A DNA stretch of 59,330 nucleotides from an uncultured bacterium (GTDB lineage: Bacteria > Patescibacteriota > Gracilibacteria > Absconditabacterales > Absconditicoccaceae): positions 1 through 59,330 of the forward strand of contig CAIXFE010000093.1 in assembly GCA_903918675.1 (NCBI GenBank), written 5' to 3'. A program made the position numbers and the translations under genes. This document shows, piece after piece, positions 2,509 to 54,595 of the stretch. Within the stretch, counting starts at the first letter, position 1. The number at the start of each line of letters is the position of its first letter. Under the pieces are notes generated by a model, which saw nothing but the letters and a program-made list of their open reading frames with translations, had not been told where the DNA came from and ran no database searches.

Positions 2509-2593
2509 GGTATATTGGTGTATCGGGGATTGGTGTATTAGTGTATTGGAAAACGGCTGCCTGCCGAATAACCAATAACCAATTGCCAATTAC
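2509..2593. repeat. word-array palindromic element (ATTGG.. / core GGCTGCCTGCC / CCAATAA..)
   Basis: Left arm is repeated (T)ATTGGTGT words and the right arm is repeated CCAATAA/CCAATTG words (reverse-complement sense), around a GC core. Confidence 0.75.
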
Positions 2594-2622
2594 AAGGAGC
2601 TCAGTACATTTATGATCAACAA

Positions 2623-3888
2623 TTAATTCAATAAAGACTTCGCCTTCTCCAACTGATTATCAGTATTGTCTTTTGCGTATGCTCAGGTATCAAATGTCAC
2701 AACCACATCAGGAGCTATACCTACTTTATCTATAGTCTTCCCACTTGGAGCATATCGTCTGCCTATCGTATATTTCAGTGATGCCCCATCAGTAAATTCA
2801 TCTATCGTCTGGATAGATCATTTCCCAAACGTCTGCGTGCCTACGATTTTAGCTCAAGCTCATTCTTGTAAAGCTAGGGCAATAATCTCTCCTGCAGATG
2901 CAGTTCCTCCATCGACAAGAACGATGACAGGTAATCACTGGAGATCTCCGTATCCTTCAGAATAAAATTTCTCATCAGGCAATGTTCTATATCTTGTACT
3001 TACAATGAGACTTCATTTGGGTAGGAAGTGAGAGACAATTTCCGACGCGATAGAGATAAGCCCACCACCGTTTCCTCTCAGATCTAGAATAACTCACTGA
3101 ATGCTTTGTTTTTTCAGACTCAGAATATTGGTTTTCAAAAGGTTCTCTGTCTCTTCTCCTATGATAGAGATATTGATATATCAGATATTTTTACTTCCTG
3201 CTCACGTAAGCACCTCACTCGTGACTGAAGGGATACTCAATTTATCTCTGGTGACTACCTTTTGTAGAACAGTCTTACTGCCATCTTTCCCTATCCTTTC
3301 AAGAGTGATTGTGACTTGGGTCCCTTTGGGTCATCTAATCTTGGCGACAGCACCATTCACATCGAGGTCCTTTACTGATCAACTATCGATCGAAATAATC
3401 CTATCCAAGGGCATTAGTCCAGCAATGGCAGCAGGCGATCATTTCAATACTTCTTCTATCTGCACATAATAGTCTATTTTACTTACCACGGCTCATATCC
3501 CCTCGAAATCGGTCTGCCCCTTGATCTCTTCGTTGAATCAAGAATTTTCCGTGCTATCCATATATACAGTGTACGGGTCATCGATACCATCTACGAATCC
3601 TTTGACAGCATCTTCAATCATAAGCCCACTTTGGAGTTTGCTTTGATCATAATAGGCACTTTGTAAAACACTATATATTGCATCCAAGCGTTGATATGCA
3701 GTATCTCCCAATGCCGATGCTCCAGGATTGACTACTTGCCCTATCGACCTTATGAGTCCATCAATATTGATCTTCCCTTCTTGGATAAGTGGCTGATGGA
3801 GCGCAGTATATTCATATTTAATCTGTCGGACAAATCGGCCTAAAAGGATTCATAATGCAAATATGAGGAGAACTTTCAATTTTTTCAT
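2623..3888 (-). CDS. S41 family C-terminal processing peptidase
   Basis: No piece reaches 60 aa in the standard code. With TGA=Gly there is a continuous 421-aa ORF (checked triplet by triplet, no TAA/TAG). N-terminal TM segment, PDZ-like region, LDLRGNGGG, LVDGGTASAGEI. Confidence 0.8.
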
Positions 3889-3914
3889 ACCTTATATATA
3901 GGGAATATAAAAAA

Positions 3915-4259
3915 CTACGAATTCGTCACATTTTCGTATATTTCGAGAATACGATTCCCCTTCACAAATACAACATCAAGGGAAATCTCTGTCTCGGGAG
4001 GATATCTTAGAAGATAGTATTCCATCGTTTTCCTAAGTGTGGCTATTTTCTTTCTAGTTACATAGCCATCTATCTCATCAGTGTTATTGATGACTTTCAC
4101 CTCTACAAACAGCAGGGGATCTCATTTTCTGAAAATAATATCTATCTCTCCTCAGCGGATAGTATAGTTTTTTTGAAGTAAGGTATATCACAGATCTTCA
4201 TAATGTTTGGTTGCGAGTTCTTCACCGGCCTTACCTACTTCTTTCAGATAGTTATCCAT
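3915..4259 (-). CDS. YraN family (UPF0102) endonuclease-like protein
   Basis: GEELATKHYEDLGY..., RGGEIDIIF, LLFVEVK, and a C-terminal DVVFV motif. Four in-frame TGA codons read as Gly. Confidence 0.7.
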
Positions 4260-4295
4260 AGCCCATTCGTTAGCAATAAATATCATACAGATCCT

Positions 4296-4877
4296 CTAGG
4301 CTTCAAGCTCTTTCTCTACAAAGTCCCGATTCACAATATTCCACCGATTCGTCACGTATTCTACCCTACGATTCTGATACTTCAGGTAATAGGCATGCTC
4401 CCATACATCTACAGTCAATAAAGGTTTTTTATCTAGAGTAAGCGGAGATCAAGCGTTACTCGTATTGATAATCTCTAATGTCCCATCAGGGTTTTTCACT
4501 AGCCAAGTCCGCCCAGATCAGAAGTTGCCGACAGCACTAGCCGTCATTACTTCTTTAAATTTTTCAAAACTTCATCGGTTAGCATTTATCGCTTCTAACA
4601 ATGATCAGGTAGGTTGATTATTCTCTTGTGGCGATTGCAGACAATTTCGATAGAACGTGTGATTCCAAATTTGTGATGCATTATTAAAGATGGGCCCATC
4701 AGCGGTCTTGATAATTTCTTCCAATTCTCGATCCTTAAATCCGGTATCAGCGATCAGCTCATTCAGTTTATTCACATAGCCTTGATGATGTTTACTGTAA
4801 TGAAGCTCGACTGTCTGGGCGTCAATGATGGGTTCTAGCGCATTGTAATCATAGGGGAGAGAGGGGAGAGTGAACAT
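4296..4877 (-). CDS. Fe/Mn superoxide dismutase
   Basis: [29 protein letters not shown] ... [15 protein letters not shown]. Pieces joined across TGA at 4605..4607. Confidence 0.9.
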
Positions 4878-5334
4878 AATAAGGGATTAGGAATTAAAAA
4901 TTAGGCATTGTATTTTTTTAAAATCTAAGGTCCAAGTTCTAAGCGCTAAGCTCTCTGAGTATCAAGCTTCAAGTTTCCAGCCAATAGCAATTGTACCGGT
5001 CGCCGAAGATTTTTCAATAGAAAATACGCTCTTGCAAAACGACATTTTTTCATTATTTATAGAAGTATCTTTATCTATCAAGCAATTTATGCTCAGAGAA
5101 AGCTTCAACGCAACGTGTTGTACAAACGGTAGAACTACTGGAGCTTTTCTCGATCGCATAAAAAGATAGAACATACTATTTTGCAGCTGCGCCTTCTGGG
5201 AAACTCCAGAGGTTTTTTTTAATTCGACGAAAGAAAATTTATGAATCTATTGCAGAAAATATTATATCGAGATGATTCGTGTCGAAACAAAATTTCTATA
5301 CGTAAAAGAATCTCTAAATAATTCAAATTTTACT

Positions 5335-5470
5335 ATATTCTGTCTCCCTTTCATAAAGGGAGATACCCGAAGGGGAGAGGGATTTTTTCTCGAAAACACT
5401 CTATCATCTCTAGTATCTTAAATCCACCTGTCTTTCAGACTTCCCCCTTTGCAAAGGGGGACAACATGGG
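5335..5470. repeat. hairpin-pair intergenic element (copy 2)
   Basis: TCTCCCTTTCATAAAGGGAGA hairpin, then ACCCGAAGGGGAGAGGGATTTTTT, ATCCACCT and a CCCCCTTTGCAAAGGGGG hairpin. Confidence 0.6.
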
Positions 5471-6472: not shown

Positions 6473-6570
6473 GAAGGGCTTGAAAGGTTTGAAAGGTAAG
6501 AAAGCCTTGAAAGGTTTCCGAAAAAAACTCCCTTTATCCCTTTGCGCCTTTATTCCCTTTCCTTCCCCTC
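6473..6570. repeat. word-array palindromic element (GAAAGG / CCCTTT)
   Basis: Left arm CTTGAAAGGTTTGAAAGGTAAGAAAGCCTTGAAAGG, right arm CCCTTTATCCCTTTGCGCCTTTATTCCCTTTCC. Confidence 0.7.
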
Positions 6571-6577
6571 CGTCCAT

Positions 6578-8461
6578 ATGCAAGACATCATACTTCAGCT
6601 ATTCCATACGCCAACAAGCAAATTAGATCTTGATCTCCTTACTCAGCTCAAGAGAAGTTTTTCTAGAACTCATAAATTACCTGATCTTCCTTCAAACATC
6701 CAACTATTACAAGCTTACTACACCTTACTCAAAGCCAAAAAAATCAAAAAAACTCCTCAGATAGAACAGCTACTTAAGAAAAGAGCGATCAGATCTAGTT
6801 CGTGAATCGTAGCCATCCAGGTGCTTACCAAGCCCTTCCCCTGCCCAGGTCAGTGTATTTTCTGTCCCAACGATCCGACTATGCCCAAGAGTTATATCAA
6901 GTCAGAACCGGGTGCAATGAGGGCATTGCTCAATCATTTCGATCCGATCAAACAAGTATACAATAGATTGCTTTCACTGACATTGACCGGTCACGAAACC
7001 GATAAGATCGAGATGATCGTCTTGTGAGGGACATTCGACGTTTACACGAAAGCCTACAAAACGAAGTTTGTGAAAGAGTTATATGATGCCTGCAATACCT
7101 TCGATGAATATTTCGATAATATCACCGTCTCTACCACGACGAAATATTCTCACGCCATCACGGATAAGAGCAAGAAGATAAAATACTCGGCGAACATTAC
7201 TGAGGCACTCAAAAGAAATGAGAGCACAGCACATAGGATCATTTGACTCACTATCGAGACCAGACCTGAATATGTGACAGATGAGAACTGCAAATTTCGA
7301 CGTGAGTTGGGGGTAACAAGGATCGAGATGGGGTTGCAGTCTCTGGATGAAGAAGTCTTAAAGCTGAATAAGAGAGGGCATACGGTCCAGCAAGCACGCA
7401 TGGCCTGTGATAAACTCAGGAGGTATGGCTTCAAGATCTGTCTGCATATCATGCCAGGATTGTATGGCTCGAGTTATGCAAAAGATTTGAAGAGTTTCGA
7501 AGATCTTTATTCTGATCCATTTTTCAAACCCGATGAAATAAAATTTTATCCGACATCAGTCATTCCAAACACCCAACTCTGCAAACTCTACCAAGAAGGC
7601 AAGTACAAACCTCTGGAAACATCAGAGATAAAAAAACTTATTACTCAGACCTTTCTTCACGTTATCCCTCCCTACACCAGGATCAAGCGTCTCATCCGCG
7701 ATATCCCAGAAAACGAAATCGTTGCATGAAGCAAAGTAACGAATCTTTCGCAATTGATGCACGAAGAAATGCAATCAAAAATTGAAAATTGAAAATTGAA
7801 AATTGAAAATTTAACCGGAAGACTTTATGATAAATATAAACTTTTCAAAACAGTGAAAGAATTTCTAAGTGTCATTGCGAGTGAAGCAAGGCAATCCAGA
7901 AAGTGAAATAATGATGCAACATATATCATTGGTAAGAAGCCCGATCTAAAATCATTGAGAAACTTCGTATCATTAGATACAAGGAGTAGAGAAATTAGAA
8001 ATAAAATTAGAAATTGAAAATTGAAAATTGAAAATTGATCTCCGAATCTTGTGATGAGGAGATATCAGAGCAGCGCAGGGGAGGAGTACTTTATTTCATT
8101 CGAAGATGAGTTGGGATACTTGTACGGATTTGCAAGATTACTATTGCCCAAAGATGGAAAGAATCTAAGCTCTAAGTTCCAAGTGCTAAGCTCTAAAACG
8201 GCGATCATTAGAGAATTGCACGTTTATTGAAACGTTGAAACCCTCAAACAATGAAACAATGCGACACTGAAACACCGAAACAATAAGACTCAACATACTT
8301 GATTCTGAAAACAACTCATGCAGCTCGCCGAACAAATTGCAAAGGGAAACAATTACAAAAAACTTTCCGTAATCTCCGGCATTGGTGTCAGAGCATATTA
8401 CAGAAAGCTTTGATATAGACTCGAGTGAAGCTATATGGTGAAGAAAATTACTTCGTCTTAG
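6578..8461 (+). CDS. Elp3-like radical SAM / GNAT tRNA-modifying acetyltransferase
   Basis: CPGQCIFCP radical-SAM cluster motif, LTIETRPEY, MGLQSLDEEVL. C-terminal GNAT region [41 protein letters not shown]. All pieces lie in one frame with TGA=Gly. Confidence 0.8.
7778..8038. repeat. intragenic word-array element inside elp3
   Basis: (GAAAATT)4 at 7778..7812, hairpin GTCATTGCGAGTGAAGCAAGGCAATCC at 7871..7897, (GAAATTR)6 at 7990..8038. Translated in frame. Confidence 0.7.
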
Positions 8462-9116: not shown

Positions 9117-9251
9117 GATGATATCATAACAAGTAAAAAATCTAACTAGTATATACATATTAGCAAAAAAAAGTCAACACAAAAAAACACCCGTCTCCAG
9201 GTGCTTTATATTCTCGTTTAGTCGTTTTAACGTTTAGTCGTTTGAACGTTC

Positions 9252-11156: not shown

Positions 11157-11309
11157 AAATAGTGTATAATAATATAAAATTTTCAAATGATCAAATTGCA
11201 CCAAATTATTCCCAATCATTTTTTAAATTCTTAAATTCCCTTGTTCTGTAAAGAATAAATTTTTAAATTCATTCGAACATTAGGAATAATTTATAAATTT
11301 GTATATTAA

Positions 11310-12587
11310 CTAATCATTCACATCGTAATCATCATCGAACCTACTCAAATATTCTTTCTCTTCATCCTCATTATCATAATCTTCATCGCTCTTTTTCTTT
11401 TGTCCTTTCACCTTTTTCCTCTTCCCTTCGGTAGCCTCCAGTTTAGCGATATCATCCTCAATTCCAAGTATTTTTTGCAATCCCGTATGTTCTTTCAATT
11501 TCTGAATGACCTTCTGTTCGATCTGCCTCACTCTTTCTCTCGTGACATCAAATTCCTCTCCTACTTGTTCCAATGTATATTTGGGTCAATCAATTCCATA
11601 TCTCATTTTGACGATCTTCGCTTCTCTATCATCCAGCATTGCTAAGATCATATCTAGATTTTGCCTCAGGGCATTCTTCTCTGCAAACTGATCCGGCCTC
11701 AACGTATTGTTATCTTCGATCAAATCGGCTAAGGTGTCTCTTCATTCATCACCCACTTCTCTATCTAACGATACATTTCCGAAGATCACTTCTTCCAATT
11801 TCTTGATCTTCTTGATAGGAAACCCCAGTTTCTGTCAGATTTCTTTGGAGGTTGGCTCTCTTCATAATTTCTGGAACAGAATCTGATAGGTTTTATTGTA
11901 AGAATTAATTTCATCGATCAAATGGACGGGAATCCTTACGTGTTTGGTCATATCAGCTATGGCTTTGGTGATGCTTTGTTTGATCCACCAAGTCGCATAG
12001 GTAGAGAATTTAAATTCTTTATCTGGATCAAATTTTTCTATCGCTTTGATCAGCCCAATATTCCCTTCTTGGATGAGATCCGAAAAGCTCAATCTAGAGC
12101 CAAAAAACCTCTTGGCGATACTGATCACCAATCTAAGATTGGATTCTATCAATGTCCTCTTAGCTGCCTCATCTCACTTTTTGACACGTCTTGCGATATC
12201 TCTTTCATCTTCAGAATTTAGCAATGGGATCTTAGATATCTCATTGAAATAGAGCTTGATAAAGTCCTTATGCTGAGGATCGGCGCGACGAGTATCAGTT
12301 TCGTATAATTGCATTTTACCAAGTTTCGTCTCTTTCTTGGCTTCTTCAGCTTCTTTTTCTAATATTTCTTCGATAGTAATGATCTTGATCCCGAGTTTCT
12401 CAGCTAGATCATAAAATTTCTCGATAATCTTGATATTGAGATCCATATCATCGACATCAGCAATCACATCTTCTTCATTGATGATACCCGTGAGGAATCC
12501 TTGCTTCAAGAGATCCTGCAGTGGTTTACTGAGTTCAGAGATGTCATCCTGGAAACTTTCCCATAATTGTTTTTTTACTTTTAGCAT
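11310..12587 (-). CDS. rpoD: primary sigma factor RpoD
   Basis: Three same-frame pieces. [67 protein letters not shown]. Carries an extra charged C-terminal tail. Confidence 0.95.
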
Positions 12588-12643
12588 ACCAAAGAAGGGG
12601 ATTATGGAGTAAAAGTACTAAAGAACAGGCAATCTTCAAATAT

Positions 12644-12671
12644 TTGACAAATACGATAAAATATATATAAT
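12644..12671 (+). promoter_or_regulatory. near-consensus sigma70 promoter
   Basis: TTGACA-16 nt-TATAAT on the plus strand. The next recognisable plus-strand gene (ruvA) starts about 400 nt downstream. Confidence 0.5.
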
Positions 12672-12937
12672 ATATATGGTGTAGTGACCATGTGCTTAAA
12701 TAGAGAAAGGGAACATTATCTTGCAAAAGATTTTGTTCTTTTCTTTTTGCAGGAGAAGGTAGTTATTACCTATCTTCTTGTACCAGCATATGAATTTAAG
12801 AACAACAAAAAAATTTGTCACAAAAGAATTTGTACGGATTTAATCACCAATATCAACAGAAAAATTGGTCTACATATTCACGGATATTCTTGCTAAGATT
12901 GTATGGAAACAGAGTGTGGATTGATTATATTCTTAGT

Positions 12938-13049
12938 GTTAAAAGGTTAAAGAGTTGAAAGGTTAAAGGGTTATTAATGAGATAAAAACACGTTAACCCG
13001 TTAACACACTAACTCGGTAACTCGCTATAACTCGCCAACCCGTTAACCA
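12938..13049. repeat. word-array palindromic element (GGTTAAA / GTTAACC)
   Basis: Left arm GTTAAAAGGTTAAAGAGTTGAAAGGTTAAAGGGTTA, right arm CGTTAACCCGTTAACACACTAACTCGGTAACTCGC...CCCGTTAACC. Period is about 7 nt. Confidence 0.75.
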
Positions 13050-13072: not shown

Positions 13073-13624
13073 ATGTTTCACTTATTCACTGGCAAACGCA
13101 TTTCCTACGGACCCAAGACCTACCTTCAAAACGCATACTTCGGTATCCAAGCAAACTATATGTGAATCCAGTCAGAAGGTACTTTTTTTCTCTATCCTTA
13201 TCTAGATGATAATAAGAAGACAATAATTTATTATGCCTTCGATACGGCAGATCAGCAGGCGCTTTTCGAGAGCTTACTCAAAGTCAGTGGGATCGGGCCA
13301 AAGACCGCTTTCCAGATCGTACAGTTGCCTAGAGAAAATCTCCAGACGGCACTCAAAACCGTAGACGTAAAGTTTTTCCAGTCCATCCCAGGCATCTGAC
13401 CTAAGTCTGCAAAGAAAATTTTGCTGGAACTCAAATGAACGGTCGGTGTCGAAGATTTCGAAAAGATTACCGTCGACGAAAAATTATTCAAAGACATCGT
13501 CAAATCACTCAAAAATTTCGGCTATGATACCTACAAAGTCAAAGAAGTTCTACAAAAATATGATGGCAAAATCACTAAAGAAAATATGCCAGAAGTGATC
13601 AAGTGGATTATTAAGAATATATAA
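13073..13624 (+). CDS. ruvA: Holliday junction DNA helicase subunit RuvA
   Basis: Two HhH motifs, LLKVSGIGPKTAFQIV and QSIPGI[TGA]PKSAKKILLELK. 183 aa. Confidence 0.85.
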
Positions 13625-13629
13625 GACAT

Positions 13630-14499
13630 CTAATTAAGTGTCTCATGAGAGGTATAATCGGGGCTAGAAAATTGGGTAATTGGTTCTTTTCCTATATGAC
13701 TTTGTATCATATCTAGAACCTTTTTCGTTTCTTTTCAAGGGAATAAATTTCGACTCTTTTTTGCATAGGAGGAAGCTTTAATATAATCTTTTTTTTCAGC
13801 AAAAATTTCAGCGAACAATAGATATATATCTGCATCCCTACCCAAAGTGGTAGACGATGGGGTATCAAGTTTTAAACTTTCTTGAAGATAATCTATCGCT
13901 TGATCATAAGCTCATGAGCGCCTCAAAATAAATGCTTGTATATAGAGAATACTTTTCACTTGTTGAAACGATCATTGAGGATAAACCCCATCAAATAAAG
14001 CCAAGAATTTATTAGAATATTCAGTTACCTCATGATAGTAAGAAGATACATTAGTGTCAAAAGTAATTATCGCTTTCAAAAGCCAGAGGCCCTTTTGATC
14101 TTCCACGGACAATTGAGCTATATCACTCTCTGAAAATTTATTAGAAAAATCAAGAGCTTCAGTATACTTATGTAAGCAGTAAAATGCTAAAGATCATTTG
14201 ACAACAATGCGACGTTTTTGCTCTAAATCAATGCTATTCCCAGCGAGCAAAGGCACTAAACTCTTGGCAATGAACATCGCCTTGGAATAATCTTTAGACT
14301 CATATATTTTCTCAAGATAATCTATAAGGTGGGCATCATGCCTATGCGCTTCAAGTCAAGGATTCACTTCAGAACGAAGGGTGTCAGCAAGAGTTTTTTG
14401 GACGAATAAAGATTCTTTCCCTGCAAAAAGATCCAAGCCCTCATGCCTTGTCTTTTGTACATCTGCAAAATCTGGTTTAAAGAATTTTTCTTCTTGCAT
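13630..14499 (-). CDS. hypothetical protein, TPR-like helical repeats
   Basis: Continuous 289-aa ORF with TGA=Gly, checked triplet by triplet. No recognisable catalytic motif. Confidence 0.5.
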
Positions 14500-18965: not shown

Positions 18966-19145
18966 TTAGGGAATAAAGGTGCAAAGGACAGAAAGGTGCA
19001 AAGGGAAAAATAGAAGGGGGTGCAAAGGCATAAAAGGATCAAAGGTATAAAAGGGATTTCACTTTCCTACCTTTCAAACCTTTCTTCCCTTTCAAGCCTT
19101 TCCTACCTTTCAAACCTTTCTTCCCTTTCAAGCCCTTTCTTCCCG
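18966..19145. repeat. word-array palindromic element (AAAGG.. / CCTTTC.., 9-nt period)
   Basis: Left arm AAAGGTGCAAAGGACAGAAAGGTGCAAAGGG.... Right arm is CCTTTCAAA CCTTTCTTC CCTTTCAAG CCTTTCCTA, present twice. Confidence 0.8.
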
Positions 19146-19183: not shown

Positions 19184-21262
19184 ATGCAAATACGTAACTT
19201 TTGTATCATCGCTCATATCGATCATGGAAAATCAACATTAGCCGATAGGATGCTTGAGATGACTTGAACCGTGAGGAAAATCGATCATAATCAGATGCTG
19301 GATCGCATGGATATCGAACAAGAAAGAGGGATCACCATTAAGTTAACTCCAGCGAGAATGCACTGGAAAGGGTATGAACTCAATCTCATCGATACTCCCG
19401 GACATGTAGATTTCCAGTATGAAGTCTCTCGTTCTCTCGCCGCTGTAGAGGGCGTCATTTTGTTGATCGACTCAAGTCAATGAATCCAAGCGCAGACACT
19501 TTCCGTATTGTATATGGCAGTAGAGCAATGATTAGAAATCATCCCCGTCTTAAATAAAATCGATCTCCCTGCCGCACATCCAGAAAGAGTGGCCAAAGAA
19601 ATCGAGCATGTGATAGGGATCCCTAAGGAAGAAATTTTATTAGTCTCATGAAAGACAGGGGAGTGAGTGGAAGAAGTATTGGATGCGATTATCGAAAGGA
19701 TCAAAGATCCTGATACCTTCAAAAAAGAAAATCCTCAGAAATATCGACCTGCTGGAAGTCATTCTGAGAGAAGCGAAGAATATAATAAGGCCAATGATAT
19801 CCTTCACAAAAGTTCAGGATGACACGATTGAATCTCCAGAGCCCTTATTTTCGATTGTGTCTATGACGCATACAAAGGCGTAGTCGCGTACGTCAAAGTC
19901 GTAGAATGATCATTCAAAGCAGGGGAGTCAATGCATCTCATCCATTCCGATACCGATATCATCGCGACTGAAGTCTGACATTTTTCTCCAGAATATACCA
20001 AAGATAAAACATTATCTCATGGGCAGATCGGCTATATTCTTACCTGATTAAAATCCGTCCGTGATGCACAAATTGGCGATACAATCATATGATGAATTGA
20101 AAATTGAAAATTAGAAATTAAAAATTTGCGTGATTTTATTGTGCCTGGTTTCAAGAGGGTCAAGCCATACGTCTATGCAGGCATGTACCCCGTCGATACG
20201 AATGATTATGAAAAACTCAAAGATAGTTTAGAAAAATTATCATTGAACGATAGTGCTGTAGAATATTCACTAGAAGACAGTAAAGCACTGGGATTTTGAT
20301 TTCGCTGTGGATTTCTGTGAATGCTGCACATGGATATCATCAAAGAAAGATTACGGAGAGAATATGGCATCGAGACTATCTTTACCATCCCTACGGTAGT
20401 CTATCTCGTGAAATCCAAAAACCTCAGCATCCCCGAGATCAAATCCGGGAACAATATCCAGACACTCCTTTCTACCTGACTCTACAAAGATGTTTTGATC
20501 TACGAAAAATATACGACAGCTATTTCCAGTGATGACTTAGATGATATTGTTACCAATAATACTATCGATCCCTCTGAGATCTCATCAGAAATCTCTTCCG
20601 CTCTCACCCCCCGGATCGTCGTAAAATCAGGTTCGGATCTGCTCGATCAAGGCATCATGGATATCATCTTGGAGCCTATCGCAGAAGTGGAGATCGTCGG
20701 ACCCAAAGAATATGCAGGCAATATCATGGCCCTCAGCAATGAATACAGAGGCAGCCTCAAGTCGATGGATTACCTCGATGAGAATAGGGTAGTGTGGAAG
20801 TACGAATTACCCTTCGGCGAGATCATCATCGATTTTTACGACAGATTGAAGTCAGCGACAAAGGGCTATGCGACGATGAATTACGAATTCAAGAGATATC
20901 AAGAGGCCGACCTCGTCAAGATGGATATTTGGATCAATAATGAGAAAGTCGAGGCCTTGAGCTGGATCGTTCACAAGGATAAAGTCTATTATCTCGGTAG
21001 AGAAGTGACAGAAAAGCTTAAAACTCTGATCCCCAAACATCTGTTTACTATTCCTGTCCAGGCGGGTGTCGGTACCAAGATTATTGCTCGCGAAACTATT
21101 CCCGCTATGCGCAAAGATGTGATCGCGAAATGTTATGGAGGTGATGTAACGAGAAAAAGAAAATTATTGGCAAAGCAGAAAGAAGGAAAGAAGAAGATGA
21201 AAGCATTGGGTAATGTTAACGTGCCTTGAGACGTCTTTATAAAAATGGTAACCAGGGATTAG
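19184..21262 (+). CDS. lepA: elongation factor 4 (LepA)
   Basis: [20 protein letters not shown][TGA][58 protein letters not shown]. 692 aa because of low-complexity insertions. Confidence 0.95.
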
Positions 21263-21355
21263 GAATCGGTGAGCAGGAAGCAGGAATCTGTCCGAGCCCG
21301 GCCCCAATAAACCTGCCTGCCGGCAGGCAGGCCAATTCCCGATAAACCAATAAAC
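21258..21355. repeat. word-array element with perfect 20-nt palindrome core
   Basis: Core CCTGCCTGCCGGCAGGCAGG at 21312..21331, flanked by ..GGAATCGGTGAGCAGGAAGCAGGAAT.. and CCAATTCCCGATAAACCAATAAAC. Confidence 0.75.
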
Positions 21356-22065: not shown

Positions 22066-22180
22066 GTAATGAGTCTTCGACGTAATATATCACTTCGTGA
22101 TGTAATTTAGTCGCAATTATGTTGTAGCCACGATAAATTACAGCGTAGCGTAATTACGATATATTACGATACATCACAAT
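22066..22180. repeat. word-array palindromic element (ACGTAAT / ATTACG)
   Basis: Left arm CGACGTAATATATCACTTCGTGATGTAATT, right arm AAATTACAGCGTAGCGTAATTACGATATATTACGATACATCAC. Confidence 0.7.
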
Positions 22181-22198: not shown

Positions 22199-23008
22199 AT
22201 GATCCACATCACAAAAATCCAAAACAATATTCTCTCTCGATACAAAACCCACGGTAGAACTCTTCCGCGAAGAAAAACCAGAGATCCCTATGCGATTCAC
22301 GTCTCTGAAATCATGCTGCAACAAACTCAGGTCGAGAGAGTAATTCCCTATTTTCATCAATGGATGAAAGATTTTCCCGATTATGCATCATTAGCCAAAG
22401 CATCCAAAGTTGATTTACTTAAACATTGGTCAGGATTGGGATTTAATTCGAGAGCTCTTAGATTACAACAGTGCGCGAAGAAAATGGTTGAGGGTTGAAG
22501 CCTTCGGCTATTGAGGGTTGAGAGTTGAAAAGCAACAAGAGACGAATTGCAGAAATTGCCGGGCATCGGTCCCTACACTTCTGCTGCGATTATGGCATTT
22601 GCTCGAAATAAAGAAGTGCCGGTGATTGACACTAATATCAGAAGAGTGCTCATCTTCCTTTTTAAGCTTCCAGAAACCATTATCTCCAAAGAGCTCGAAG
22701 TCTTCGCCGAGAAAATAATTCCCAAATGAAAATCTCGCGATCGACACAATGCACTCATGGATTATGGAGCACTAGAATTGACAGCGAAAAAGACGAAAAT
22801 TAAATCACTTTCTAAACAATCAAAATTTGAATGATCGGATCGTCAGGTTCGCGGATGGGTCTTAAAAAAAATGATTAAGGATGAAGAATTAAGAATTAAG
22901 GATGTTGGAGAAGAATTTCCACATAAAAATATAAAAAATATTTTAGAGGGGATGAAAAAAGAGTGATTGATTCATATCAAGAAATGAATAATAACGATTG
23001 CAGAATAG
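22199..23008 (+). CDS. HhH-GPD base-excision DNA glycosylase (MutY/Nth-like, no Fe-S cysteines)
   Basis: DPYAIHVSEIMLQQTQVERV, LPGIGPYTSAAIMAFA, VIDTNIRRVL, NALMDYG. 269 aa with no Cys in the C-terminal half. Confidence 0.75.
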
Positions 23009-23117
23009 ATATTATGTCATTCTGATCCCGACGGGTCGGGAGAAGAATATAAAGGAGCTTATTGTACTCTTCACTTTGTTCAGAGTGACAGATCATTTAA
23101 CCTCGTATCATTCCTAG

Positions 23118-23447: not shown

Positions 23448-23460
23448 AAGAATAAATACA

Positions 23461-23521
23461 AAAAAATAAAAAAACCCGTTCAAGCATCACTAGAGAAATA
23501 TCCCTAGGTGTAGCTAACGGG
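23461..23521 (-). terminator. intrinsic terminator on minus strand
   Basis: Minus strand reads CCCGTTAGCTACACCTAGGG...CTAGTGATGCTTGAACGGG (imperfect hairpin of about 15 bp) followed by TTTTTTTATTTTTT. Both flanking genes are on the plus strand. Confidence 0.5.
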
Positions 23522-23756
23522 GGTCCCGCTCATATAGAGACGAGATCTAGTGGTAGTCCAATCAGCGTTAGTAGATCAACTGACAGGTATGTACATAGAA
23601 TCTAACAATAACAAGCGTATGAAGTTACCATACAAAAGTATTCATAAGTGTTAGTGTTCAGAGGGTCTATGCTACAGTGACTGTACTATGACGTAGTCTT
23701 ACTGATCCAAACCAGTCTAGAACATACAGAAAAGGCAATAAATTTCAATAGATTCT
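23466..23756 (-). ncRNA. candidate ~290-nt non-coding RNA of unknown class
   Basis: A 380-nt gap with stops in all frames. Minus-strand TTGTTA-17 nt-TATGAT (23763..23791) upstream and a minus-strand terminator downstream. Confidence 0.3.
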
Positions 23757-23827
23757 TTACTTATCATAGAAATAATCTAAGACAATAACAAACTTGTTAA
23801 CCCTTTAACTAGCTAACTCGTTAACCG

Positions 23828-27262: not shown

Positions 27263-27330
27263 AACGATGGATGGTTTAGAACGATAGGTTGTAGAACGAT
27301 GGAGTAGTGGAGAGATTCATAGAACGATAG
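27260..27330. repeat. left word array (TAGAACGATGG x4) flanking the four-helix-bundle gene
   Basis: Copies at 27260, 27277, 27292 and 27320. Reverse complement of the array at 27789..27845. Confidence 0.8.
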
Positions 27331-27356
27331 AGATTTATTAATTTACAACTTAAACG

Positions 27357-27719: not shown

Positions 27720-27788
27720 GAGGATGGACCATTAGACTTATAGAACGATTGTTCTATCGCTCGTCCTCCACCAAGGAGGGTTCCAACT

Positions 27789-27845: not shown

Positions 27846-27931
27846 ATCCGAAGGTTTTTTCAATTGAAAAAAATAATCACATCAGTATCAATCTTTTAAT
27901 CTGTCAGTCTTTTAATCTGAGAATCCCAATT

Positions 27932-29730: not shown

Positions 29731-29905
29731 TTTCTGATTTTCAATTTTTAATTTCCTTGTCCTGTAAAGGATAAACAATTTCTAAGTTCTAATTTCTAAT
29801 TTTCAAACCTCTTATGTCTAGGTTCTTTAAGCTTTGTGCTTGGCAGGCTATAAGCTTTAAGCCACTCTCCCACTTTCCCACACTCCCACCTTCCAACTCT
29901 CTTTC

Positions 29906-33712: not shown

Positions 33713-33873
33713 TTTACGAATGCTCGAATATCCAAATTACCGAAACAATTTTAAAATTCTAAAATTTAAAAAATCTAAAATTGTTTTATAAATTTGGAAA
33801 GTATTCAAAAAATATTTGTACATTCGATGACTTGATGGACTTTACGGACTTTACGACTTGATAGACTAATTCT

Positions 33874-35586: not shown

Positions 35587-35768
35587 TTCTCATATAGGTA
35601 ATAGGCAAATGTAGGAGATCGAATTAATGTATAATTGATAATTAATAATTGATAATGATGGTGTCTTTTAATATCAAAAAAAACTCCGACATTATACATT
35701 CTACATTATAAATTATTCATTCCATTCATCTCGCTTCTCTACACTTTTTAGCCGCTTAATAATGGTAT

Positions 35769-36497: not shown

Positions 36498-36941
36498 ATG
36501 GCAGGAAAAATTACTAACATTCTTAATCTAGAAATACCCGCTGGGAAAGCTCAGCCATCTCCACCGCTAGGACCTATGCTAGGAGCCAATGGAGTCAACA
36601 TCTGACAATTCATCAAAGAATTCAATGAGAAGACCATGGACCATATGAAACAATTTGCTGGTGTAGATGTGAAAGTAAAAGCGACATTGACCATCTACGC
36701 AGATAGATCTTTTGACCTCAAGATCGGAAGCCCCGTAACATCAAATCTGATTCTATGGAAACTCAAATTACCTAAATGATCTGGAGAACCCAACAAAACC
36801 AAGATAGGGAAACTCACCAGAAAAGATCTAGAAGAAATTGCTGAACTCAAAAAAGGAGATATGAATACTGACGACCTCGAAGCGATGATCAAAGCGATTG
36901 CAGGTACTGCAAAAAATATGGGAGTAGATATCGAAAAGTAA
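36498..36941 (+). CDS. rplK: 50S ribosomal protein L11
   Basis: [23 protein letters not shown][TGA]QF. Confidence 0.95.
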
Positions 36942-36942
36942 T

Positions 36943-37010
36943 TGAAACGTTGAGATATTGAGACATTGAGAGATTACAATTCTCAATCCTCAATCTCTCA
37001 ATCCTCAATA
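36943..37010. repeat. word-array palindromic element (TTGAGA / TCTCAA) between rplK and rplA
   Basis: TTGAAACGTTGAGATATTGAGACATTGAGAGA - TTACAA - TTCTCAATCCTCAATCTCTCAATCCTCAATA. Confidence 0.8.
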
Positions 37011-37751: not shown

Positions 37752-37903
37752 CCTCTAGTTTCTAGTTGCTAGATCTTAGAATCTAGAACCTAGTATCTAG
37801 ACTCCAGAATCTAGTTAAATAGAAAAAGCAGACTTTCCATCACGGATTGCCTGTTTTTTTTATATTCTGACTTTTGATTTTTAAAGTTTGCAACCCTTTC
37901 ACC

Positions 37904-39505: not shown

Positions 39506-39663
39506 AAGGAGGAATAAGAGAATAAAATATCGATGAAAGAATAGCTGTATTGATATCTCAATTATACTCAAAAAAAGTATAAAACCCAAATTTCTCAGCG
39601 ATTTAGGCTCATTTAAGGGTTTACATTTACATGAATCGATATATAAACCTAGGAAAGTGGCGA

Positions 39664-39775
39664 ATTGTTATTGGTAATTGGTAATTAGTAATTGGTTATT
39701 GGGCCGGAAGCCTTCTCCCAATACACCAGCCCCCAATATACCTGCCTACCGGCAGGCAGGCCAATACACAAATAT
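39664..39775. repeat. word-array palindromic element (GTAATTG / CCAATAC) with CCTGCC..GGCAGG core
   Basis: ATTGTTATTGGTAATTGGTAATTAGTAATTGGTTATTGG - GCCGGAAGCC - ..CCAATACACC..CCAATATA - CCTGCCTACCGGCAGGCAGG (39741..39760) - CCAATACAC. Confidence 0.8.
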
Positions 39776-43259: not shown

Positions 43260-43330
43260 TACTATATATTACAAAGTAAATGTACTTTTCCTAATCTAAG
43301 GTCTAAGCCCCAAGCTCTAAGTTCTAAATG

Positions 43331-44230: not shown

Positions 44231-44303
44231 ATATTGAACTTGAGTTAAAAGGTTTAGAAAGTTCCAGGTTTGGAAGGTCGGTTTAAGGTTACAAGGTTGA
44301 TGG

Positions 44304-44786: not shown

Positions 44787-44815
44787 CAACTAAAAGATGA
44801 AAGATTAAAGAATAT

Positions 44816-44920
44816 AGATTCTTAATTTTTAATTTTTAATTTTCAATTTTTAATTTTTAATTTTCAAAGAATTTCTAAGGCCTAAGCTCTAAGGTCTAAG
44901 TCCTAACTCTAAATTCTAAA
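44816..44920. repeat. word arrays (TTTTAAT/TTTTCAA then CTAAGNT) between atpA and atpC
   Basis: TTAATTTTTAATTTTTAATTTTCAATTTTTAATTTTTAATTTTCAAAG followed by CTAAGGCCTAAGCTCTAAGGTCTAAGTCCTAACTCTAAATTCTAAAGG. Confidence 0.75.
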
Positions 44921-46447: not shown

Positions 46448-46588
46448 TTGCTTATTGAGGTGACGGCCTCAGATGGCCACAAATAGCCTCAGATGGCTGC
46501 AGGTCGTTAATTTATCTTTTCTTAAAGAAAAATTAAATAAACAATCTGTGGCAACCTGTGACAATATGAAGCAACCTGTGGCAATACC
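46448..46588. repeat. word-array element (CCTCAGATGGCCAC / CTGTGGCAACC)
   Basis: GGCCTCAGATGGCCAC and AGCCTCAGATGGCTGC on the left, CAATCTGTGGCAACCTGTGACAAT..GCAACCTGTGGCAATACC on the right. Shares words with 1..62. Confidence 0.75.
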
Positions 46589-47050
46589 TTAACTTCAAAG
46601 AATTGTATCAAGATCCCTCTCTAAATTCCTATGATAACGATATCCCTCACCTTTGAGATCGACACCGAGAGCGGGCGCATCGACGAAGGTCACATCAGCA
46701 TCTTTGAAGGTTTGATGGATAAAGGTATCCAAAGTCTTCTGCTGAGATACTCCAGCATTGATCGTAAATTCTTTCCTATATTGTGCATATACCTTTTTAC
46801 AAATCTTGACGATATCACTGAGATCTCTTGTATTTGCTTTGCCTAAGGTATGGAGGAATCCATAGAGCTTAGCAATTTCTGGATTTTGTTTGCTGATAAT
46901 TTGTAGATATCCATCTCAAATATCCAACTTATGACCATAAGATTTGACCAATGAGGAAATCACCAAAAGATAGCGAAGGACTTCCTTCTCTTCCAGCGCC
47001 TGCACAAAAAATTTGCGCACTAAATCTTCATTGGAAATAAATCTTTTCAT
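46589..47050 (-). CDS. atpH: F1 ATP synthase subunit delta (OSCP)
   Basis: Position between atpF and atpA. C-terminal VDAPALGVDLKGEGYRYHRNLERDLDTIL resembles the OSCP tail. Start is uncertain (a GTG at 47107 would add a hydrophobic segment). Confidence 0.6.
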
Positions 47051-47111: not shown

Positions 47112-47190
47112 TGTAATTAATCGTAATTACTAATTACGTGACCCCGACGGGTCGGGGGAACAAATTACCAATTACGTCCGGCTTGCCGGG
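47112..47190. repeat. word-array element (TAATTAC / AATTACC) with CCCGACGGGTCGGG core
   Basis: Core at 47143..47156 plus a second hairpin CCGGCTTGCCGG. The same core occurs at 23027..23040. Confidence 0.75.
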
Positions 47191-47206
47191 ACAAATTACA
47201 TTTTTT

Positions 47207-51807: not shown

Positions 51808-51932
51808 ACAATGAAAATGATAATATAAATGTGGAATTATTTAAAAATATTTTGATATACATCACTCAATCTCTCAACCTTCCCACTTTCTTTATCCTGT
51901 AAGGACAACCTTCCCACTTTCCAACCTTCCAA

Positions 51933-53282
51933 CTATTCTTCTATTCTCCTGCATTCTAGATAAAATCTCTTCTCTGCGGCTTCGCCCATAGAAAAGGTTT
52001 TCCTAGGTAAAGCACCGTCGATGACGACGGTCTTGAAGAAGTCGCCTTTATCCATGATCGGTAATAAGAATCCCATATTGTGATCTCTACTTCCCAGAGT
52101 TTCCGTTGTTTCTTCCCCATGCACATAATCTATCTTCACTTCAGGATGAGCTTTCAAGTACTGATCTAGAAATGCCTGCAGGTTGCCGACTTCGAGATTG
52201 AGCTTGGGATGGACGATGTCTAGCAGACCAAACGTAGACGAAGCGACAAAACGGATATAGTGATGCTCCGCACTCGAAGGTTTCAGACTTTTTTTCAATT
52301 CTTCAGAAGAAGGATACGTAGTGACGACAAGATCAGATCCCTGCGCCTGGAAATAGCTCTTCATCTCTGCCAAAAGGCCTGCCTGGTCCGCAGCGAAAAG
52401 TACTCTATGGATCGGCTCGAAAGTCAGCCCCGTATCATGGACATTGACCAGCTCTACCAGCGCAAATCTGGCTGGAAAGTTTTTTTTCTGATCCTCAGTC
52501 AAAGTTTTTTTCTTCTCTTCTCGGATGGCCTTGGCAGTCGCGAGCGAGTGATTCCCATCTCCCATAGCGAAGAGCAAGACGCCCTTCTGATCGTCTACAG
52601 CATATTTCTCCTGAAACACTTTCTTCTCAGCTAATTTCTCTAAGGCCTTGATGACTTGATTTATTTTTTGCTCATCATCGATCTGATAGCCGGTAGCATG
52701 GCCACCTTCCATCATGAGATCGAAGTCATATAATTTCTGGCATTGCGCGCGATCAGCGAAAAGCGGCTCGATGACTGTTCTTTCAGGATCATCGATCAGT
52801 ACCATAATATGGGGCGTCTCTATCGGCGCTCCATTTCTGATCTGGATCCTCGGAGGCAATCTATCTACGATAGTTCATTCCGTGGCTCTGATCAATGTTT
52901 GCGATCCGACACTATAATCATATTTTTCTAAGTCCAGCGCCACGACCAATCATTTTCTAGAGTCCGTATGCGCGGTCTTTCTATCAAGCAAGACGAAGCA
53001 AGATCATTTATTTTCTAAGATACCATCTAGGTAATCACGCATATAGGTATGGATACGTTTGATCCTGTGGGCTTTATCAGCCTCTTCGAGATACACTTCG
53101 GGATAGATGATATTCACAGTCGAAGGATCATCTGCCACGATATCAGCCACTTCTTCCCGATATTCAGGCTCAGAGGTATATTGATCACAAGCGACGACAG
53201 CTCGTTTCTCAAGATCGACGGAGTCATTAGGAAGAAGAATTTCAGGTACCGCAATTCAGAGATGGGGGAAAATAGTTTGCAT
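51933..53282 (-). CDS. DUF1015 family protein
   Basis: VVACDQYTSEPEY, AMGDGNHSLATAKA, EPIHRV, RFYLECR. 449 aa, upper part verified. Confidence 0.8.
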
Positions 53283-53353
53283 GGGAGTATGATTAGGGAC
53301 TAAAAGTTCTTTGCACTTATAGAGATGTAAGTGATTTTTGCAATTGAAAAAAG

Positions 53354-54058
53354 ATGTTGGGATTGAAAAGGTGGAGAAAAATATTTATAATTGGGGGTAG
53401 AAGATCTTTTTTACTTGGTAATCGTGAAAATATGGATTTTGACGTAGAGAAAGAGACGAAAGAGACGGAGCTTATTCAGACTGATTTAAGTGTAACCGTT
53501 GTTCATGAAGATGAAAATGCTGATGTATTCAGTGAAGATTGGGAAATTTCTATGCACCCAAATTTTCTTAATCTAAAAGACTCCAAAAGACATAACATTA
53601 CTAGTCATTCGAGATGGTTTAAAAATAAGATTAAGCTTAATCACTTAAAGGAGGGGATAGAGGCCATAAACAAACGAAAGATCTGTATTGTAGATTTCGG
53701 AATGAATATCGGGACAGAGATAAATGGCATCAGACCAGTAATTGTCTACAAAGCTTCGACATATAAATATTGAGAAGACATGATAGTAATCCCTATTACA
53801 TCTTTTGAAGATGAGACAGGAGAGGAAAAATCTAAAGACGCCTTAGATGTAGTGTTGGAGGCGGACATAGAGAATGGAATAGATCACAAGTCATTGGTCA
53901 AAATAAGACAAATGAGGTGTGTTTCCAAAAAAAGATTAAGGAGAGATAAAGATTCAGGAATAATCAAAATCCTTGGAAATATTGTGAACGAAGATATCAA
54001 GAGAGAAATAAATGGAAGTATTAAGAAAATATTTGGATTAGATGGGAACGACAATTAA
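53354..54058 (+). CDS. MazF/PemK-fold toxin domain protein with ~100-aa N-terminal extension
   Basis: C-terminal half reads ICIVDFGMNIGTEINGIRPVIVYK..., IVIPITS, SLVKIRQMRCVSKKRL (PemK pattern). The N-terminal part is acidic and unmatched. An alternative start exists at 53432. Confidence 0.65.
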
Positions 54059-54125
54059 AAAAAAGCTCTTCAATCCTTGCGGATAAGAGCCAGCTACCCC
54101 GAAGGGCTACATCTAAGTGAATTAA

Positions 54126-54409
54126 GTATACTCAAAATCATACAAAAAAGCAAGAGAAAATGATTTAAAAGAAAAACCCTGTATGCTATTTACGAGGAAC
54201 CTACGGAGCCCCACATACAAGGATTTACTTTCTTGATGATGAGTATACTCAAAAAATCTAAAAAATCAAGCAAAAGTCCAGCCAAATTTCTAGAATTTTA
54301 AAAAAAGGCCGCACCAGCCAAGCATTGCTACTTGACCCATACAGACCCATCGTGATAACATAATCATGTTACTCAAAATCATACAAAAAAGCAAGATGAA
54401 ATGATTTTT
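54126..54409 (+). repeat. three dispersed ~40-nt direct repeats (117- and 124-nt spacing)
   Basis: GTATACTCAAAATCATACAAAAAAGCAAGAGAAAATGATTT (54126), a degenerate copy at 54243, and TGTTACTCAAAATCATACAAAAAAGCAAGATGAAATGATTT (54367). Copies 1 and 3 fold as AAATCAT/ATGATTT hairpins. Confidence 0.7.
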
Positions 54410-54595
54410 TTAGATTTAAAAATTTGAAAATTAATTCGGAATAATTGGGGGTAATTCGAACATTTGTAAATTTGAAGTCCCTCAATCTCTCAACTTCTCA
54501 ATCCCTCAACTTCTCAACAGCCGAAGGCTCCTACTTCCGATTGAAAAAGCCCCAAAGAAGGGTATAGAGAGAGGGATTTATTTTTCTAGTTATCC

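Follow-up and report, generated by a model that had tools for sequence, protein, structure and literature searches.

What occupies the space between the genes of the uncultured, ultra-small SR1 (Absconditabacteria) bacterium represented by contig CAIXFE010000093.1 (assembly GCA_903918675.1, Absconditicoccaceae), and why is it there? Along the 59,330 nucleotides (nt) of this contig, all of which were analysed and which are hereafter called the window, most gene boundaries are filled with short degenerate "words" of 7–9 nt repeated in tandem and with small GC-rich hairpins, which a preliminary description made from the letters alone had taken for a single composite palindrome. The data presented below indicate that these elements behave like fast-turnover selfish or mutational DNA and not like ordinary gene-control signals; the explanation to which we assign a probability of about one half is that they consist of non-autonomous mini-palindromes and of word arrays that are prone to slippage and can be copied, selection doing no more than filtering the outcome.

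The window is a compact segment of 38% GC in which TGA is read as sense: open reading frames (ORFs) of at least 100 amino acids (aa) sum to 103 kb if TGA is not counted as a stop and to 38 kb with translation table 11, so that the table-11 gene calls were dropped. Calling with code 25 yields 63 genes, among them gyrB, rpoD, lepA, an ELP3-like radical-SAM protein, ribosomal proteins L11 and L1, an ATP synthase operon and a type I restriction system; no tRNA gene was found in the window. The nearest LepA homologues carry the names Absconditabacterales, Absconditicoccaceae or candidate division SR1, homologue look-ups having been made with TGA-free genes or table-11 fragments as queries, four of which gave no match.

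Word arrays and their turnover

Arrays were called with Tandem Repeats Finder (TRF), counting periods 6–10 and their multiples, against a null model of 30 dinucleotide-preserving shuffles. TRF returned 106 rows for the window, with 2.4–9 copies and with 7 (26 rows), 8 (25) and 9 (14) as the commonest periods. Arrays cover 1268 of the 7423 intergenic nt (17%), a 22-fold enrichment over the 57 ± 41 nt (about 0.8%) of the shuffles, and 892 nt of coding DNA versus 242 ± 64 nt; as far as word periodicity is concerned, the comparison with shuffled sequence leaves the preliminary description standing. An array is present in 23 of the 40 gaps of at least 60 nt, four further gaps hold arrays that are visible by eye and were missed by TRF (1–63, 44231, 46422 and 47051), and a by-eye reading of all gaps of at least 50 nt finds word arrays in most of them. 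The word arrays announced in the non-coding DNA are real, the eight loci given as examples all contain what had been described, and elements do occur in convergent, divergent and co-directional gaps as well as inside ORFs. Their period of 7–9 nt and the absence of spacers distinguish them from clustered regularly interspaced short palindromic repeats, which are constant, 23–50 nt long and set apart by unique spacers of about their own length.

At least 15 unrelated words, in degenerate copies, are found within 59 kb, and they are reused: of 1224 pairs of unlinked arrays, 108 have 6 nt or more in common, versus 71 ± 8 for letter-shuffled words. The recurrence of a small vocabulary at unlinked loci, already noticed in the preliminary description, is borne out by repeat families D1, D3–D7 and D9; thus, the TCTAAGN array at 4915–4954, kept in the strain contig L208, has its vocabulary in common with 8155, 43286 and 44865 (D3). 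Likewise, the 15-mer at 30–44 is the exact reverse complement of 46466–46480, as had been stated; positions 1–63 represent a GCCACAGRT-type mirrored array of which the window edge leaves only the right half, and are 71% identical over 59 nt to 46540–46598 (family D8). The arms that had been called locus-specific are instead made of words from a reused genome-wide vocabulary, and one array can be exchanged for another of different vocabulary, as will be seen below. No position within the words attracts a surplus of mismatches (Fisher p = 0.40), an even spread as expected for unconstrained decay, and a "conserved core plus variable spacer" inside the words is without statistical support. The recent 36-nt higher-order duplication at 18966–19145 (see below) likewise speaks for unconstrained decay.

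Could each word type be a clustered binding site for one DNA- or RNA-binding regulator or nucleoid protein? A limited vocabulary recurring above chance at unlinked loci and a 5–6-nt word core recurring at fixed spacing are what such sites would look like, but this interpretation has to accommodate the large number of words within 59 kb of a genome that is very small, mismatches that respect no position, the turnover of words at orthologous sites and between strains, and a spacing of 7–9 nt that places neighbouring sites on different faces of the helix. It must be considered very improbable.

Turnover is seen in relatives recovered by scans with AtpA (loci of other genomes and contigs carry labels such as L085, and LepA proteins of relatives labels such as P0001). 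The five gaps of the ATP synthase operon measure 156, 167, 129, 73 and 71 nt in the window and are full of arrays and hairpins, whereas those of L085 (AtpA 88%) are 34–48 nt long, and the three covered in L086 (AtpA 86%) 26–30 nt, without any element; in L087 (AtpA 81%) the gaps of 77–214 nt contain other words, including an AACGG/CCGTT mirrored pair, and other GC hairpins. The comparison of related genomes for presence and absence that had been proposed thus finds the ATP-operon elements missing in 86–88% relatives, and the repeats suffice to triple or quadruple the operon spacers with respect to the sister lineages. Array density, expressed in nt per kb, is 22.7 in the window, 21.6 in L166, 14.1 in L087, 13.9 in L165, 6.2 in L085 and 0 in L086; it is 0–4.7 in eighteen other code-25 relatives and 20–43 in many standard-code candidate phyla radiation (CPR) loci. 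Over 92 AT-rich loci the density is bimodal: many Moranbacteria/Parcubacteria-type loci have high values and most code-25 relatives values close to zero, so that the trait is lineage-specific and recurrent in CPR and no hallmark of SR1. L165, an SR1 metagenome-assembled genome (MAG; LepA 88%), is syntenic with the window over 2.6–27 kb and, apart from the one leader element discussed below, its gaps carry words different from those of the window.

Turnover extends to strains, represented here by short contigs of other metagenomes whose flanking genes are 98–100% identical to those of the window. After the rplA stop, the CTAGA-word array at 37754–37815 is fully replaced in L205 by an 85-nt GACTTGATA/GACTTTACA array, the vocabulary of which is that of window 33829–33867; the swap is bounded exactly by the stop codon and by a separate terminator, which lies immediately downstream and is unchanged. 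The AAACGAC-type array directly 3′ of the gyrB stop (9214–9250, minus strand), also followed by a separate terminator hairpin, is replaced in one of two contigs from the same project (L207) and identical in the other (L206). In a further strain contig GCTTAG words, a variant of the 20-nt hairpin core A and TTAGA words make up an element that follows sodA, whereas in the window only 9 nt separate this gene from its neighbour. The single copy-number case is one extra 7-nt word in L001, a scaffolded assembly, within an array of ATTAAGA words in an ORF (22874–22900, plus strand; TRF and comparison); as the additional word would throw a conserved C-terminus out of frame, it represents either a genuine frameshift variant or an error of assembly. 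It may be mentioned that, when L208:1026–1660 is compared with window 3881–4305, this strain contig is 98.7% identical through sodA while the next gene (UPF0102) is strongly diverged in the alignment, and that the boundary of this recombination mosaic falls exactly at the gap holding the extra element with words and core A.

The same elements are found base for base in independent assemblies from ENA, JGI and Logan. Independent assemblies also break just before or inside arrays (L202, L203, L210, L211 and L212): atpA contigs stop about 90 nt short of the array gap, and three contigs begin inside 33747–33867 (plus strand), where an AATTYTAA array and a GACTTKAYR array both contain contig ends of other assemblies. 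These breaks suggest that the arrays are multi-copy or heterogeneous in the populations; the repeats explain assembly fragmentation at gene boundaries and provide hypervariable markers with which strains can be tracked.

Elements are also present, in frame, in the genes for ELP3, LepA and an HhH-GPD protein. Compared with solved EF4 structures, the LepA of the window has an insertion at the domain I/II linker and a GAAAATT array in a variable loop (20095–20126, plus strand, family D1) that encodes IENGKLEIKNL. The insertion is a B element (GTCATTCTGAG...GTTCAGGATGAC; 19758–19823, plus strand), which adds 24 aa and is missing from P0001 (87% identical in alignment A1), the nearest of the LepA proteins that extend over the site; P0072 and P0083 (88% and 86%) start just downstream of the site and are not scorable there, and P0047, of another lineage, has an independent B-like insertion at the same linker. 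This is an in-frame palindromic insertion in a conserved protein, missing in a close orthologue, as in the palindromic elements of Rickettsia (see below). In L165:8802–10000 (SR1 MAG GCA_026397395.1, related to window 19184–19830) lepA is split exactly at this linker: the N-terminal part, which starts at about L165:8888, runs into a stop, a gene call of its own covers the C-terminal part, and the two are separated by about 570 nt with a 124-aa reverse-strand ORF. The linker looks like an insertion hot spot.

In the ELP3-like gene (7765–8284, plus strand) GAAAATT arrays at 7765–7811 and 7990–8038 are accompanied by a half B motif (7871–7897), by TCTAAGC words (8164–8196) and by a TGAAACAA array (8228–8284). 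The same loops of ELP3 and HhH-GPD contain arrays or hairpins in the window, L165 and L166, and the words differ: GAAAATT versus GAAAATG, half B versus whole B versus CCAAT words, ATTAAGA versus CCAATAA, the last being the words of the L165 loop corresponding to 22874–22900. Other arrays in ORFs are made of GGTTGAG words, direct, around a GCCTTCGGC mini-hairpin at 22500–22508 (22478–22520, plus strand) and, in a PLD-like gene, of CAACCTT words (26339–26378, plus strand; TRF). The repeats therefore add peptide insertions to essential proteins (LepA, ELP3), and the kinship with selfish elements of the REP or RPE type proposed in the preliminary description is upheld, as far as behaviour is concerned, by presence/absence and replacement between strains and by in-frame insertion into proteins.

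Mirrored pairs and dispersed hairpin cores

According to the preliminary description, the right array is usually the reverse complement of the left. This holds for about ten sites (2509, 6473, 12938, 18966, 22066, 35631, 36941, 39663, 46448 and 47085) and only at the level of the word core: an ungapped inverted-repeat search missed the word palindromes and exact 5-mer sharing between arms is near zero, so that the arms are complementary merely through the 5–6-nt core that they have in common. Among array pairs adjacent in the TRF output an inverted core of at least 5 nt is found in 5 of 20, versus 9% of unlinked pairs (p = 0.03). At the mirrored sites the minimum-energy fold is one long interrupted hairpin in which left words pair with right words, with z-scores from −5.3 to −1.0. 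In five of the ten pairs z is below −3 (−3.3 to −5.3), and the other half (−1.0 to −1.6) fold no better than composition-matched shuffles, so that the arm complementarity claimed earlier survives the shuffle comparison for one half of the pairs and fails it for the other.

The cleanest palindrome is that of TTGAGA and TCTCAA words at 36941–37009 (z −5.25). Values below −3 are also reached by the AAAGG and CCTTTC arrays of a divergent gap (18966–19145, z −3.74, family D2), the right arm of which contains a 36-nt higher-order unit duplicated at 97% identity, by the GCCTCAGATGGCCAC-type and CTGTGGCAAC-type arrays that enclose an AT-rich hairpin in the atpH–atpA gap (46466–46585, z −3.38), and by the GTAATTA and AATTAC words of the atpF–atpH gap (47113–47192, z −3.29), which surround a core C at 47143–47156 and are accompanied by a second GC hairpin at 47176–47192. 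Lesser values are obtained for the weakly mirrored ATAATTG and ACATTAT arrays (35631–35721, z −1.96), for 2510–2593, folding as one interrupted hairpin (z −1.26) of ATTGGTGT words (2510–2549), degenerate core A (2554–2566) and CCAATAA words (2572–2593), for GAAAGG and CCCTTT words, four to five of each, lying between a stop and the next start (6473–6570, z −1.14), and for GGTTAAAG and GTTAACCC arrays upstream of ruvA (12938–13049, z −1.05). Mirrored ACGTAAT and ATTACG arrays precede the HhH-GPD gene (22079–22177), and five ATTGGTA words, a small hairpin (39702–39712) and CCAATA words with core A (39741–39760) make up 39663–39775 (D5).

Is there a hairpin core at the centre of each element, as the image of a composite palindrome implies? 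Cores with words on both sides do exist, as had been described, but a GC hairpin core is found at only about eight sites, and arrays and cores are separable. At six of them (11241, 21312, 29757, 39741, 51891 and 22500) the flanking words are direct and not inverted, so that the hairpin lies within one array and not between mirrored arms. Many arrays have no hairpin nearby, such as the CTTAGA array right after the atpG stop (43295–43327, minus strand; TRF), the AACCTT-word array filling the atpC–atpG gap (44251–44299, minus strand; sequence reading), the AACGATRG array directly 3′ of a stop codon (27263–27332, plus strand; TRF) and the array at 37754, and many hairpins have no arrays (715–812, 5344–5460 and 23016). 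Arrays and hairpin cores thus occur independently and do not form one composite element; the cores are separate dispersed families, common to distant genomes.

Core A is the 20-mer CCTGCCTGCCGGCAGGCAGG, itself (CCTG)2.5/(CAGG)2.5. In the window it is placed singly, at 21312–21331 (after AGCAGGA-type words and amid direct CCAATAA words, the whole spanning 21262–21355) and, with one mismatch, at 39741, besides the degenerate copy at 2554; the two good copies share CCAATA flanks and are 90% identical over 40 nt (39726–39765 in the case of the second; D5). Exact copies are found in distant standard-code CPR loci (L035, L044 and L124) and near-exact ones in L038, L055, L069 and L074, the last lying just upstream of atpA between GAATTTK and CAAAATT mirrored arrays. 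A scan of IMG/VR returned exact core A in 35 stretches (42 copies), many of them in contigs of 60–68% GC, and tandem or paired copies occur only in some viral contigs. Direct repeats of 7–14 nt flank core A in unrelated contigs in 9% of the cases versus 1.1% of control positions (score at least 6); with only about 9% of the copies carrying one, a target-site duplication is not a general property of core A. In viral contigs core A is also seen inside tRNA genes (L191:2239–2330, L168:8580–8660 and L198:495–560): in L191 a tRNA-Met recognised by ARAGORN has it as its long variable arm, and in L198 it breaks up a D-loop-like sequence for which ARAGORN makes no call.

The B element (GTCATTCTGAG...GTTCAGRRTGAC) is 66 nt long in LepA and 74 nt in the gap 23016–23089, where, by sequence reading, a core C is nested within it (23027–23040); the second core C is that at 47143. 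Core D occurs at 11241–11258, with a GUAA loop and direct TTAAATTC words on both sides (11220–11275, D9), at 29757–29774 amid direct TAATTTY words followed by a CCCACYYT array at 29862–29901 (29728–29901; D4, D6 and D7), and, as a variant, at 51891–51908, following CTCAAYC words (51866–51933, D6) and between two exact 14-nt direct copies of ACCTTCCCACTTTC (51877–51890 and 51908–51921). Finally, a composite E-type element of about 100–130 nt consists of two CCCTTT-loop-AAAGGG hairpins and a GGGATTT...AAATCC pairing; at 715–812 it reads CCCTYTTT-loop-AAAGRGGG ... GGGAKATTT ... CCTCCTTT-loop-AAAGGAGG, with a second copy at 5344–5460 and a partial one near 54569 (54520–54595). It is multi-copy and conserved across three SR1 relatives (the window, L087:11507–11720 and 13536–13669, and L165:17811–17970), has no Rfam match, and could be a miniature inverted-repeat transposable element or an unrecognised structured RNA. 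L165 has a palindromic element of its own, about 150 nt long (GTCATCCCGGTGTTAT...CCGGGATGAC), with four copies in 21 kb (1357–1501, 8080–8230, 13583–13782 and 19710–19944); it is absent from the window.

The observations on cores A and D lend themselves to an alternative, namely that one active DNA transaction, so far undescribed, makes both arrays and hairpins by writing out short templates, local or ectopic, in direct and inverted orientation, the candidates being insertion and excision of mini-palindromes that leave 7–14-nt target duplications, or templated (snap-back or slip-back) repair at hairpin breaks. Apart from the direct repeats around cores A and D and the repetitive make-up of core A, this idea is favoured by the presence of a period 6–10 array within 80 nt of 12 of the 47 distinct viral core A copies (one mismatch allowed), by the whole-array swaps with edges exactly at stop codon and terminator, and by a correlation between array and GC-hairpin density over the 92 AT-rich loci (Spearman 0.34, p = 9e-4, uncorrected for phylogeny). 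Yet about 90% of the core A copies are without flanking duplication, insertion into a pre-existing array explains the direct flanks equally well, arrays and hairpins often occur one without the other, and the ten unannotated window proteins that were scanned yielded no candidate enzyme. That the two kinds of repeat are the outputs of a single transaction at work in many CPR bacteria and also in phage-like elements whose hosts are unrelated is accordingly held to be unlikely; if it were true, with short templated words written beside a portable core A, intergenic DNA, protein loops and tRNA arms would be hypervariable cassettes.

Tests of function and a possible origin

Are the elements simply intrinsic terminators? 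A few hairpins do have T runs (9184–9207 and 5193–5212), but terminator-like sites are at shuffle level (11 versus 12.0, 15 versus 11.9 and 13 versus 11.6), recognisable terminators adjoin the arrays and are not within them, and cores A, C and D have no T tract, so that the earlier statement that simple terminators do not explain the elements is substantiated. Nor would an artefact of assembly, to which the frequent ending of other contigs in arrays might point, be reproduced base for base in assemblies of different origin; taken together, ordinary terminators and artefacts are largely refuted and have next to no probability left. The Rfam 15 covariance models gave no match in the window at gathering score or at E ≤ 0.1.

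A more serious alternative is that the elements are RNA or DNA modules of gene expression, acting either as intercistronic hairpins that stabilise the upstream mRNA or, Shine–Dalgarno sites being absent, couple the translation of adjacent genes, or as G-poor leader arrays that recruit ribosomes in the manner of S1-type enhancers. Arrays abut both stops and starts with opposite composition: those 0–30 nt after stops have 28–34% G and 8% C, and those within 45 nt before starts 7–16% G and 22–27% C. Moreover, the better mirrored elements fold as one long stop-to-start hairpin, one palindrome is invariant in two strains, one leader element is kept in an 88% relative, and for the TAACTGA repeats located just before starts in Beggiatoaceae a role as translational signals was proposed (PMC4679880). 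However, the 30 nt before starts have 10.8% G in the window and 8.8% in L085–L087 versus 19–21% in coding DNA, leaders being G-poor with or without arrays, and pooled CPR arrays show no G/C orientation bias. The G-rich arm after stops and the C-rich arm before starts are weakened as a sign of function, since a palindrome reads the same on both strands and the leaders of array-free relatives are equally G-poor. Fail-safe termination by stop-codon-rich words in a two-stop code fares no better, many after-stop words (GAAAGG, TTGAGA, ATTGG) having no stop.

To this must be added that the same arrays occur inside ORFs, that half of the mirrored pairs fold at shuffle level, that words differ at orthologous gaps and arrays are swapped between strains, and that the same operon is element-free in the 86–88% relatives. 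With this last finding a regulatory or structural role is hard to reconcile, the few conserved elements remaining candidates, and expression modules are judged doubtful, slightly more so than the single transaction considered above. As for the leaders themselves, no enrichment of Shine–Dalgarno sequences is detected in the window or in the close relatives, and from the sequences the lineage appears to initiate translation without such pairing.

How, then, could slippage-prone arrays and mini-palindromes have come to fill these gaps? Two non-autonomous kinds of repeat would have colonised the non-coding DNA and the permissive protein loops of this SR1 lineage. Palindromic hairpins of 17–75 nt (families A–E) would disperse as copies able to nest in one another and persist wherever they are tolerated, in gaps, in protein linkers when in frame, and in tRNA arms. 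The degenerate 7–9-nt word arrays, on the other hand, may change length by slipped-strand mispairing or unequal exchange and would also be copied or exchanged between loci, whence the reused vocabulary; when the same word core is present on both strands and each side expands independently, a mirrored word palindrome would result. Beside start codons presumably only G-poor arrays survive, because the leaders of the lineage are G-depleted and without Shine–Dalgarno enrichment, and the G-rich arm would thereby be forced to the stop-codon side; within ORFs only stop-free, frame-preserving arrays would survive. The data show the enrichment, the dispersal, the polymorphism among strains, the absence from close relatives, the in-frame insertions and the want of terminator or Rfam features; expansion by slippage, copying between loci and selective neutrality are the premises of this scheme that we infer.

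Several data weigh against it. Simple slippage in place cannot convert an array of 70 nt into an unrelated one of 85 nt at 1–2% divergence of the flanks, as after rplA, so that a step of ectopic copying or insertion is needed, and no transposase or RAYT-like gene (RAYT, REP-associated tyrosine transposase) is present among the ten unannotated window proteins scanned with Pfam. The link between hairpins and arrays suggests a mechanism beyond independent processes, core A being enriched beside arrays even in viral contigs of 60–68% GC: array coverage beside the viral copies is 4.9% versus a background of 0.76%, a 6-fold difference. Some elements may be under constraint: the TTGAGA/TCTCAA palindrome has no difference over about 70 nt in two strains (L204 and L205) whose flanks are 1.2–2.3% diverged, and the HhH-GPD leader element is retained in L165 at the same place (12564–12700) with the same GTAAT/ATTAC core and a length of 137 versus 139 nt. 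Furthermore, in every mirrored pair of the window, L026, L074 and L087 the G-containing arm is 5′ and the C-containing arm 3′, an orientation for which the leader filter would account.

CPR or Patescibacteria are regarded as streamlined, yet about one sixth of the intergenic DNA examined here, by the conservative TRF count, is fast-evolving repeat. The portable 20-nt palindrome beside arrays, common to distant CPR and to viral contigs, points to an uncharacterised mobile or repair process, which could be studied in the few cultivated CPR–host systems.

Known systems and minor features

Heptamer repeats in tandem between genes are known from cyanobacteria, where the short tandemly repeated repetitive sequences of Calothrix and Nostoc belong to this type. 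Long simple sequence repeats made of heptamers have been described in the intergenic DNA of Xanthomonas (GGGAATC) and Nostoc (GGGGAYT) (PMC4692102), and those of Beggiatoaceae (TAACTGA) lie just upstream of starts (PMC4679880). Like the arrays of the window they are tandem 7-nt words (7–9 nt here) situated mostly in gaps and often near starts, vary in length and sequence among close relatives, include some inverted pairs and have slippage as their proposed origin. Unlike the window, with its many words, those genomes have one or a few words throughout; furthermore, the copies are degenerate here, about a third of the sites are mirrored, dispersed hairpins are interleaved, and arrays lie in frame within ORFs and are swapped as whole units from strain to strain.

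As regards the hairpins, the repetitive extragenic palindromes (REP) of proteobacteria are short, GC-rich, extragenic, dispersed, often located within operons, and non-autonomous (PMC3116915). Core A resembles REP and the bacterial interspersed mosaic elements and REPINs built from them in being a dispersed, extragenic imperfect palindrome, and differs by having no GTAG head, no REPIN doublets in the window and no RAYT among the ten unannotated window proteins scanned, and by being identical as a 20-mer across distant phyla, GC contents and viral contigs, whereas REPs are species-specific. The Rickettsia palindromic elements (RPE) are inserted in frame at permissive surface sites of conserved proteins, and occur in intergenic DNA and RNA genes as well; the B element of LepA and the array and hairpin fillers of the ELP3 and HhH-GPD loops show the same behaviour. 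RPEs are 100–150 nt long, have no flanking word arrays and are known only from Rickettsia, so that length, word arrays and taxon all differ, and no similarity in sequence is known. The closest match to a mini-palindrome inside a word array is provided by the small dispersed repeats of Nostoc punctiforme, which are mobile-looking hairpins of 21–27 nt with no coding capacity, nested and located within heptamer repeats. Their sequences and phylum are different, and we know of no report of a core identical across phyla among them.

Nearer to the window, a gene of a Gracilibacterium, a CPR relative using code 25, contains hypervariable 9-mer repeats, with tandem variants, heterogeneity in the population, long stem-loop flanks and assembly breaks (Sieber et al. 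2019, PMC6851277). Variants of a 9-nt word in tandem are common to both cases, but there they are limited to one coding locus, a PTD tripeptide repeat constrained at the amino-acid level, and no pervasive intergenic arrays are described with it. The Gracilibacteria rank second among phyla in inverted-repeat density (10.1101/2024.09.29.615628), an extreme value that repeats of the present kind explain for genomes of this type. A literature search on the core sequences and on CPR intergenic repeats returned no description of pervasive intergenic word arrays or of core A, in keeping with the earlier remark that no description of the architecture was known, which stands for CPR and SR1.

A few arrays of the window remain to be mentioned, all called by TRF. 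A TTAACNNN array (23791–23825, plus strand) abuts the start codon at 23828, an ATTGAGRG array is followed by an unrelated, non-complementary CTGTTAWC array (28368–28436, plus strand), a CTTAGR array after the atpA stop is accompanied by GAAAATT/TTAATTT and AAAGATK arrays (44793–44919, minus strand), and a CTCAAYYT array lies upstream of a type I restriction gene (54481–54518, plus strand).

As to the neighbouring sequence, 27263–27940 is a long stretch without convincing protein coding: the first 185 codons of the ORF 27386–28366 look non-protein-like and its dUTPase part begins near 27940. A 380-nt gap at 23448–23790 has a terminator-like end on the reverse strand. Neither stretch has an Rfam match, and both are possible unannotated RNAs. 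The 3′ end of the window encodes a protein with a MazF/PemK-like toxin domain (53354–54058) and a type I restriction-modification system (54596–59328; HsdR, two unknown ORFs and an HsdS-like protein) and has a lower GC content (31–35%). The gap that precedes the type I restriction gene, 537 nt in length, also contains a 38-nt direct repeat (54129–54166 and 54370–54407, 95% identity) with an inverted partner at 54234–54252, and these repeats form no word array.

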